From an uncultured Rhodospirillales bacterium (GTDB lineage Bacteria > Pseudomonadota > Alphaproteobacteria > CAAGCB01 > CAG-977), in the NCBI GenBank assembly GCA_902777205.1, contig CACYSU010000011.1, positions 6,910-70,909 of the forward strand: DNA of 64,000 nt. The letters are read 5' to 3'. Under the pieces are notes generated by a model. The model was not told the DNA's origin, did not search any database, and worked only from the letters and a program-made list of their open reading frames with translations. The stretch's first letter is position 1. The number at the start of each line of letters is the position of its first letter. This document shows positions 52 to 1,507 of this stretch, one piece after another. The position numbers and the translations under genes are program-made.

Positions 52-288
52 ATGTTTATTCTGTTTAAATTCGTTTTCGCCGCGGCGTTGATTTTTCATT
101 CGTCCGGCGCGATGGCGGAACAACCGCAAACCGATCCGGACAAATCCGCGAACGCGAAAACCGACAACCTGCCCGACGGCGCGGTCAAACTGCCAAGCGG
201 GCTGATCGTCCCCCCCCCCGCGGGAAAACAGCCGCGATCCGCTTTACGTCCGCTGGGAAATGATCCGCAACAAACTGTTTTTCCTTGA
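52..288 (+). CDS. Short ORF encoding an N-terminal signal peptide (MFILFKFVFAAALIFHSSGAMA), out of frame with the downstream 415-aa ORF. Likely the 5' part of a phase-variable secreted-protein gene.
   Basis: Hydrophobic signal-peptide-like N-terminus. Runs through a C10 tract at 210-219 and stops at 286-288. Frame 2 (the downstream ORF) opens immediately after a stop at 203-205, so loss of one C would fuse the two ORFs. Confidence 0.45.
   Translation: MFILFKFVFAAALIFHSSGAMAEQPQTDPDKSANAKTDNLPDGAVKLPSGLIVPPPAGKQPRSALRPLGNDPQQTVFP
210..219 (+). repeat. Homopolymeric poly-C tract (10 C) inside coding sequence; candidate slipped-strand phase-variation site.
   Basis: Counted directly: c at 210 plus ccccccccc at 211-219. 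Sits at the junction of the 52..288 and 260..1507 ORFs. Confidence 0.6.
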
Positions 289-1507
289 TTATTACAGCGC
301 GCGCGATTTGGATCAAAAAAAGAAAAAGGGCTGGCCGACGACCGACGCCTTTATGGAAATACGCCAACGGATCGACGCGCTGAACGCCATAACGGCAAAA
401 GCGATGGAGGGCGATCCGAAGCAAGAGGAAAACGTCGCCGCCTATGAAAAATATTTTGAATCCGTCTGTCTGGAATGTATTTTCGAGGAATTGACAAAAG
501 ACGCGGAATATCCCGCCGTCGGCACGCGCGTTTCGTCCGAATGTGAATCCATTTTGAAAAACAAAGATTTTTTGAACGGCGAGGACAGCATTTTCTATGC
601 GGACGGTCCGATCCGCTATATCTTTTGGACGACGGCGCAGGGGTCTTATCCGTTTGTGTCGGCTTTGCGCGCCGAACCCGATCCGGCCGACAATCCGGTC
701 GTCCCGCTGCGCGCGATGCCGTTCTATTGGATCGGGAAGCCCCGCTTTTTCCGGCATTACGGTCGGCTTTATTACGCCGATTCGGATTACGAAGACACGG
801 ACTTCGCCGTTTTTGAATTCGACACGGCGGCCGGAATATTCAAAGACGCGTGCCGGTTCACGTCAACCGTCACGGGCTGGGTTCCCGAAAAGGGCAAGGA
901 CAATCCCGTGTGCCAAGCCGTCGCCGCCAAAAAACACCAAACGCGCGAAACCGCCCCGATGACTTCCGTCATCCCCGCGGAAGAATATCAAAAATTCAAA
1001 ACGACGACGTGCCTGCGCGCGAAAGAAAATCCCGAAATCGCGGCGTTGCGCAAAGACTCGCTTTCGACGGTCGATTGTTCAAACGCGGATAACTCGACCG
1101 GTTATTTTCTGGCGTCTGAAACGACCGGAACGGGCGTCGGATTGAAAATCGACTACAACAACGACGGAAAGGACGAAATACTGACGGGCGCCCGTTACGA
1201 TTCCGGTTCGGGGGCGGGATGCAGCCACACCCTGTTCAGAATTTACGATTCCCCCGACGCCCCGACGCGGCTGATTACGAACGGCGAACCGGACGGCATC
1301 TATTTCCACGGCGGCAACACCAAAGACGGATATGAAATTTCCTGCAACAAAGGCTATCAGGAAATCGTGACCGTCGAGGGTAAAAATTATCTGCTGACCG
1401 CGGATAAAACAGGGCCTCAACGGCTGGATGTGATTACGACGCAGGCGGACGGAACGAATAAAATCGAACAACTCTGCTCGTTCATTCCGGAAATGGGGTA
1501 TCAATAA
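260..1507 (+). CDS. Hypothetical protein (415 aa) with one FG-GAP/calcium-binding-like motif (DYNNDGKDEI). Probable body of a phase-variable secreted protein; the in-frame region extends upstream to 206.
   Basis: Long ORF with native codon usage. No recognisable catalytic motifs. Upstream frame is open from 206 through the poly-C tract. Confidence 0.55.
   Translation: MIRNKLFFLDYYSARDLDQKKKKGWPTTDAFMEIRQRIDALNAITAKAMEGDPKQEENVAAYEKYFESVCLECIFEELTKDAEYPAVGTRVSSECESILKNKDFLNGEDSIFYADGPIRYIFWTTAQGSYPFVSALRAEPDPADNPVVPLRAMPFYWIGKPRFFRHYGRLYYADSDYEDTDFAVFEFDTAAGIFKDACRFTSTVTGWVPEKGKDNPVCQAVAAKKHQTRETAPMTSVIPAEEYQKFKTTTCLRAKENPEIAALRKDSLSTVDCSNADNSTGYFLASETTGTGVGLKIDYNNDGKDEILTGARYDSGSGAGCSHTLFRIYDSPDAPTRLITNGEPDGIYFHGGNTKDGYEISCNKGYQEIVTVEGKNYLLTADKTGPQRLDVITTQADGTNKIEQLCSFIPEMGYQ

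Follow-up and report, generated by a model that had tools for sequence, protein, structure and literature searches.

The stretch of DNA analysed here (the window, 64,000 nucleotides in all) comes from an uncultured Rhodospirillales bacterium and corresponds to positions 6,910 to 70,909 of the forward strand of contig CACYSU010000011.1 (assembly GCA_902777205.1). Close to its beginning lies a gene for a predicted exported protein, whose 5' part holds a run of ten cytosines (C10) that leaves the start and the body of the gene in different reading frames. A preliminary description of the window had proposed this gene as a candidate for phase variation. The features of the locus are the following.

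52..1507, plus strand: the whole gene, encoding one cysteine-rich, predicted exported protein of 484 amino acids (aa) with C9 or 485 aa with C12, from an uncharacterised family.
12..17, plus strand: -10-like hexamer TAGAAT of a sigma-70-like promoter (consensus match only).
42..47, plus strand: Shine-Dalgarno-like AAGGGA, 4 nt ahead of ATG 52 (read from the sequence).
52..117, plus strand: predicted Sec signal peptide MFILFKFVFAAALIFHSSGAMA, with an A-x-A cleavage motif ahead of EQPQ (by inspection).
52..288, plus strand: truncated 78-aa product of the C10 (OFF) allele (translation, in-silico edits, identical peptide elsewhere).
203..205, plus strand: TGA in frame 2, upstream limit of the body frame (read from the sequence).
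210..219, plus strand: poly-C tract, Pro-Pro-Pro codons and putative slippage site setting the frame (sequence and allele lengths).
206..1507, plus strand: gene body in frame 2, annotated as a 415-aa open reading frame (ORF) from ATG 260 and equivalent to residues 57-484 of the intact protein (colinear homologues; frame intact in OFF alleles).

The poly-C tract occupies codons 53-56 of the 484-codon gene. In frame 1, the 78-aa ORF crosses the tract and ends at a TGA (286-288). Frame 2, open from 206, runs up to a stop at 1505-1507, and its earliest start codon is ATG 260, from which 415 aa can be read (260..1507). The sequence bears out the preliminary description on both of these points, namely a C10 inside the signal-peptide ORF and a long frame opening just after a frame-2 stop. 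The same is true for its statement that the loss of one C or the gain of two would fuse the two ORFs: edited in silico, C9 leads to a single ORF of 484 aa and C12 to a single ORF of 485 aa, while C7, C8, C10, C11, C13 and C14 all lead to truncated peptides of 69-79 aa. The 78-aa product of the C10 allele consists of the native N-terminus through Pro56 followed by 22 out-of-frame residues, and an identical peptide is called on five other contigs. The tract codes for Pro-Pro-Pro, 33 codons past the predicted cleavage site of the signal peptide.

A search with the in-silico fused protein retrieved 30 homologues, nearly all of 474-493 aa, which cover 100% of its length. Their loci belong to metagenome-assembled genomes (MAGs) of uncultured gut-metagenome Alphaproteobacteria, including HGM16787, HGM16788, UBA6347, UBA6411 and UBA6324. 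These homologues are colinear and nearly invariant across the junction, where they read LPSGLIVPPPR..DPLYVRWEMIRNKL, LPSGLIVPPPR(D/E)..DPLYVRWEMIRNKLFFLDYY or LPSGLIVPPPR..DPLYVRWE, the three prolines being the residues encoded by the tract. The peptide spanning the junction of the fused product is VPPPRENSRDPLYVR. Because the homologues are colinear and conserved over the junction, comparison of these proteins indicates that 52..1507 is one gene and that the fused protein is its native product. Upstream of the gene, a sigma-70-like promoter (TTGTCA-16-TAGAAT with TG, 10/12 matches; consensus match only) is found on contig L013 (3731-3758); this contig, identical to the window with an offset of 3741 bases, supplies the -35 hexamer TTGTCA, which lies just before the window start. 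The N-terminus looks like a Sec signal peptide, with, by inspection, K6 in the n-region, a hydrophobic core and AMA; the homologues have an equivalent N-terminus (..YSFSATA|N).

The homologues also look mosaic: in alignment A1 (columns about 330-520 and 100-130), blocks such as LRAKENPEIAALRKDSLSTVDCSNADNST and RNAEAEYKKA-KRTFSFDGCLNSDASP as well as alternative C-terminal ends appear to be exchanged between proteins that are similar in other respects, which suggests recombination between alleles. Furthermore, relatives carry an extra unannotated gene (328-344 aa) between the family gene and the class I lysyl-tRNA synthetase gene (L001 1618-2604, L002 4254-5267, L003 4475-5509), at a place where the window lineage has just a 198-bp spacer (1508-1705).

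Sequence searches of the fused protein against Pfam, NCBIfam and PDB found nothing above threshold. The sole sub-threshold signal comes from a DYNNDGKDE loop resembling the calcium-binding loop of FG-GAP repeats (PF01839; 16.2 bits against a gathering cut-off of 22.1, E = 0.0099, in a single stretch of 21 residues); membership of this family was rejected since the score lies below the gathering threshold. A profile search of 1.84 billion representative proteins led to 45 relatives only, a few of which bear additional LprI or ankyrin domains. Ten cysteines are conserved in the family. A first AlphaFold model, built with 29 close homologues, was unusable (predicted local distance difference test, pLDDT, 47.7); the addition of distant relatives from the profile search raised this value to 83.9, with a predicted template-modelling (TM) score, pTM, of 0.76. 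From the N-terminal side on, the model shows a helical part (residues 65-170), beta structure (179-280), helices again (285-347) and, towards the C-terminus, further beta structure (351-483). The stretch across the tract, residues 41-70, reaches a pLDDT of 80-90; according to this model, the tract region is part of the fold and not a linker, and the 415-aa ORF would lack it. Foldseek searches against PDB and viral models gave propeller-like noise (TM about 0.15, root-mean-square deviation about 20 Å). The protein shares with FG-GAP and calcium-binding beta-propeller proteins the DYNNDGKDE loop, and its best Foldseek matches are beta-propeller enzymes, but the Pfam score is below the cut-off, a TM of about 0.15 is no real fold match and the N-terminal half is helical. 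As judged from its sequence, it would be an exported, disulfide-bonded and possibly calcium-binding protein.

The C10 tract is the sole G or C run of at least 7 within the 64-kb window. The numbers of C/G runs are 316, 75 and 7 for lengths 4, 5 and 6, zero for each of the lengths 7, 8 and 9, and one for length 10. Markov simulations of order 0-3 predict 0.06-0.27 runs of at least 10 per window. Thus, the tract is only mildly improbable by composition but stands out clearly in a genome where long G/C runs are otherwise avoided.

The preliminary description had recommended a comparison of tract length among related strains. The analysis covered contigs of the same species from about 23 independent assemblies of gut metagenomes, all of them consensus assemblies; the contigs were retrieved through proteins that exactly match those of the window or one of the truncated peptides predicted. 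The comparison was positive, with six different tracts within the species and a further length in a sister species:

C8, OFF, 4 assemblies: ERZ27237426, ERZ27237441, ERZ27237432, DRR198885.
C9, in frame, 486-aa protein called, 3-4 assemblies: ERZ27263860, SRR1612343 (also assembled as ERZ941675), SRR1612335.
C10, OFF, 7 assemblies: the window; ERZ27280261; short ENA contigs of ERZ28564160, ERZ943838, ERZ28564142, ERZ28574332, ERZ943791.
C11, OFF, about 7 assemblies: ERZ28575846, ERR3097319, ERR3097318, SRR32214322, ERR7454576, DRR769912, DRR769904.
C13, OFF, 1 assembly: ERZ944675.
C11-T-C5 (17 nt), OFF, 2 assemblies: ERZ28595063, ERZ28595030.
C12, in frame: sister species GCA_963589055.1 (83% amino-acid identity).

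This variation contrasts with the sequence around it. The tract is flanked across strains by CTGCCNAGCGGGCTGATCGT and GCGGGRAAACA, and the 1950 bp downstream of it differ from the window by 0-27 mismatches among conspecific strains (at least 98.6% identity) and by 0-47 mismatches between any two strains (at least 97.6% identity). Within the region compared, the contig of ERZ27280261 does not differ from the window. The flanking haplotype CTGCCA is found with tract lengths 10, 11 and 13, and the haplotype CTGCCC with lengths 8, 9, 11 and 17; in the same way, one protein allele, that of the window, is seen with both C10 and C11. Since each flanking haplotype carries several lengths, these sequences indicate recurrent length mutation. 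The 17-nt tract was observed in two samples of one project (L082 2159-2175, L083 204-220); C11-T-C5 would correspond to an expanded tract split by a point mutation, which would be expected to stabilise the OFF frame.

The poly-C tract itself is derived, because more distant relatives encode the same PPP motif as GT(C/T) CCG CCG CCC CGC, without a long run; two synonymous G-to-C changes made the tract uninterrupted in the clade of the window. A scan of JGI metagenomes for GGGCTGATCGT-N5-20-GCGGGRAAAC yielded 46 loci, all of them chance matches without poly-C, the lineage lying outside that collection.

The body of the gene has remained intact in alleles that are out of frame. Its 415 codons are free of stops and indels in 7 of the 7 full-length OFF alleles, and the sites segregating among these alleles comprise 13 synonymous and 7 non-synonymous changes, where 22% synonymous would be expected under neutrality (binomial p = 5e-5). 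As a control, codons 1-185 of the neighbouring gene for lysyl-tRNA synthetase gave 16:4 in the same strains. The pairwise ratio of non-synonymous to synonymous substitution rates (dN/dS) ranges from 0 to 0.19 among OFF alleles and between OFF and ON alleles. Considering the intact codons of the OFF alleles and this synonymous excess, the sequences argue that the gene is not an old pseudogene. Furthermore, because the body is intact and dN/dS is low, the frameshifts would be recent relative to strain divergence, which is what reversible switching predicts and not what long-standing inactivation does.

Taken together, these sequence data make it probable, at the strength of a candidate, that the locus is a slipped-strand translational phase-variation switch. 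Its anatomy matches that of classical translational phase variation at G/C homopolymers, in its structural as well as its comparative aspects: an uninterrupted homopolymer of at least 8 (here C10) lies within the 5' part of the coding sequence, changes in repeat number toggle in silico between a full-length and a truncated product, length polymorphism among close strains is out of proportion to the flanking divergence, and the frame downstream of the repeat is under purifying selection. Slipped-strand mispairing during replication would add or remove C residues in the hypermutable tract. Lengths divisible by three (9, 12) would give the full exported protein (ON); at other lengths translation would stop after 69-79 residues (OFF), and the 415-codon body would be left without a signal peptide and a good ribosome-binding site. 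In this genome, C10 would be the +1 length state that interrupts the gene, so that the window would show the OFF state, like most of the sampled gut populations. The switching would presumably be reversible within a lineage and adaptive, serving for example escape from phage or host antibody. Products of contingency loci are typically, though not by strict definition, surface-exposed or secreted; the present one would presumably be exported. The proposal of the preliminary description is therefore upheld as a candidate: tract-length polymorphism is found, and the two observations that it had named as counting against phase variation, both taken up below, were not made.

Several observations weigh against such a switch. 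The census gives about 20 OFF assemblies against 3 ON, a ratio that is indicative only, being biased by contig retrieval, in which exactly matching short peptides served to find the OFF fragments. Conspecific ON alleles (C9) come from 3 samples and from a distinct haplotype only, 98.7% identical to the window. An exact-sequence look-up among 15 billion catalogued proteins found none of the C9 and C12 versions of three OFF protein alleles (A, B and C), whose OFF bodies are present on 11 contigs. In addition, the tract stays at C11 in samples of three unrelated projects, which may point to a modest switching rate, and with one such tract only in 64 kb, the organism is not obviously rich in contingency loci. 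The excess of OFF alleles, if real, would have one of three causes: expression could be counter-selected in the gut, ON minorities could be hidden by consensus assemblies, or slippage during decoding could give some expression.

Two alternatives would make the interruption only apparent. The tract length could be a homopolymer error of sequencing or assembly in a genome that really has C9 or C12 and an ordinary intact gene, an alternative already raised in the preliminary description. Such errors are frequent in homopolymers, and the window belongs to a metagenome-assembled lineage, but six other assemblies, produced by different projects and assemblers, have C10 as well, so that it is not a one-off error, and one 76.6-kb contig shows no difference from the window in the part compared. 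Moreover, each of the other lengths turns up again in several samples and goes with particular flanking single-nucleotide polymorphisms. The ENA and Logan assemblies of SRR1612343 agree on C9; ERZ28575846 and the Logan assembly of ERR3097319 both have C11 with identical flanks, their origin from the same sample not being confirmed. With lengths reproduced across independent samples, random homopolymer error was ruled out, and an error of any kind is very improbable. It is still harder to believe in two separate genes, one for a small secreted peptide (52..288) and the other for an independent cytoplasmic protein of 415 aa (260..1507), despite the agreement of this split with the gene-caller annotation of OFF contigs. 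Every homologue outside the clade of the window is a single protein conserved over the junction, and neither the 22-residue out-of-frame tail nor the start at 260 is conserved in relatives. That tail changes with tract length. ATG 260 has just GGGAA directly abutting it and no comparable ribosome-binding site, it falls inside a region conserved and confidently folded in intact homologues, and the ten conserved cysteines argue for an extracytoplasmic protein. Its product would start MIRNKLFF.., without a signal peptide. The downstream ORF thus has neither a credible ribosome-binding site nor a signal peptide of its own, whereas the preliminary description had given a functional start and signal peptide as a counter-argument. 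On account of the single colinear homologues and of this poor start, two independent genes were rejected.

The other alternatives accept the interruption and differ on its meaning. The most serious of them, though an unlikely one, is a non-adaptive mutational hot spot: the gene would be dispensable in the human gut and on its way to being lost, and a poly-C tract that arose through chance synonymous changes would catch the first inactivating frameshifts and then drift. The dominance of OFF alleles (about 20 of 23 assemblies) fits this scenario, as do the lack of any recorded ON version of alleles A-C and the state of flux of the locus, the neighbour gene found between the family gene and lysK in relatives being absent from the lineage of the window. 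However, bodies intact in all seven full-length OFF alleles with a 13:7 synonymous excess are unexpected for an old frameshift. Neutral drift of a dead tract also predicts in-frame lengths in about one third of cases, whereas 9 and 12 are under-represented (3 or fewer ON of 23 under equiprobable frames, one-sided p = 0.03), and OFF alleles occur in two different frames on closely related haplotypes, so that repeated recent events are needed. Recoding is quite improbable. Out-of-frame alleles would then yield the full-length protein by +1 or -1 ribosomal slippage on tRNA-Pro, helped by polyproline stalling, or by slippage of the RNA polymerase, and there would always be some expression. CCC-C sites are prone to +1 shifts and, by codon arithmetic, such a shift in C10 would give exactly the C9 protein; the purifying selection kept in OFF alleles would also fit. 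Nevertheless, no single programmed shift can be conserved, because natural alleles need opposite directions (+1 for C10 and C13, -1 for C8, C11 and C17, none for C9 and C12), and more distant relatives have no slippery run. Transcriptional slippage is typical of A/T runs rather than of C/G runs, and no stimulatory element was seen, none having been looked for. A gene with programmed frameshifting or transcriptional slippage was thus rejected, there being no common out-of-frame arrangement among alleles. Between these two in probability, and distinctly doubtful, stands a switch held OFF under purifying selection in nearly all human-gut populations, either because a need for the protein arises only in a phase that is seldom sampled (for example transmission, another host site, escape from phage or immunoglobulin A) or because OFF alleles are decoded to full length by tRNA-Pro slippage at a polyproline stall. 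If this decoding slippage were true, tract length would be a rheostat of expression and not a binary switch.

A phase-variation switch at this locus can be compared with known systems. In Neisseria meningitidis, inter-strain length polymorphism of G/C homopolymers is an accepted in-silico predictor of phase variation; homopolymers of at least 8 were confirmed as variable by deep sequencing, and G/C tracts dominate among the strong candidates (PMC5084427). The Neisseria gene pilC1 is a long-tract contingency gene (PMC5231331). The present locus resembles PilC and other neisserial G/C-homopolymer genes in having a tract of about 8-13 close to the 5' end of the coding sequence for an exported protein (here a predicted one), where slippage would shift the frame of the body and length differs between close strains. 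By contrast, it comes from an uncultured gut alphaproteobacterium and encodes an unrelated protein family. The pilC tract sits in the region coding for the signal peptide, whereas the present one comes after the codons of the predicted signal peptide and belongs to those of a conserved structural PPP motif, so that in-frame changes also alter the number of prolines. There is one such tract in 64 kb here as against dozens per genome in Neisseria.

In Campylobacter jejuni, intragenic poly-G/C tracts of 8-13 toggle genes for surface structures, and gut populations mix ON and OFF cells. Mismatch repair is absent from Campylobacter, which has about 30 of these tracts, whereas the window shows strong avoidance of G/C runs elsewhere. 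Poly-C slippage also controls surface and virulence functions of Bordetella pertussis (fim promoters, bvgS frameshift), but the fim tracts set promoter spacing and not the frame, and the bvgS frameshift hits a regulator and not an exported structural protein.

Nearly all documented cases of repeat-mediated phase variation come from cultured pathogens (such as Neisseria, Haemophilus, Campylobacter, Helicobacter, Bordetella), and a literature search gave no result for phase variation in gut Alphaproteobacteria or for the present protein family. The mechanism is a textbook one; the locus is a useful and directly testable case through its setting, its strong OFF bias and evidence that is purely metagenomic. 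Public metagenome assemblies alone reveal a phase-variation signature in an uncultured alphaproteobacterium of the human gut, in an unannotated family. This marks the protein out as one on which fluctuating selection is likely to act, be it, for instance, as phage receptor, antibody target or adhesin, and the locus offers a concrete and cheap test case for reading the ON/OFF states of commensals from metagenomic reads. It also carries a warning, since the gene callers of most assemblies split the gene into a 69-79-aa and a 415-aa "hypothetical protein".

The neighbourhood of the gene is rich in other unannotated secreted proteins. Just 3' of lysK, three genes (3728-5461, 5592-6326 and 6420-7982, all on the plus strand) encode unannotated, apparently secreted proteins; this run includes a cysteine-rich protein of 577 aa whose N-terminus resembles a signal peptide and one of 520 aa in which weak YdcK beta-solenoid repeats are seen. 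Further on, two adjacent minus-strand genes (8599-12423 and 12564-14690) encode large proteins of 1274 and 708 aa, both with a putative metallopeptidase domain, DUF6782. The gene for the 1274-aa protein contains near its 3' end a tandem array of a 45-bp (15-codon) unit (about 8.4 copies, 8783-9171) that is potentially variable in length.

At 56131-60887 on the plus strand, a gene for an 816-aa KAP/AAA-type P-loop nucleoside triphosphatase is followed, with a 4-bp overlap, by one for a 769-aa protein with a C-terminal adenosine-deaminase domain. This latter matches the PADLOC RdrB model (E = 1.7e-30) while the 816-aa ATPase does not match RdrA models; by sequence, the pair looks like a RADAR-type anti-phage system. 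Other repeats in the window are a 143-bp unit in two tandem copies with an 87% match (39990-40272), apparently non-coding, and A/T runs, the longest being A9 at 61857-61865, A8 at 12522-12529 and 37189-37196, and T8 at 37240-37247 and 30691-30698. According to the ORF list, most of these longest A/T runs appear between long ORFs, where they could affect the spacing of promoters or ribosome-binding sites.

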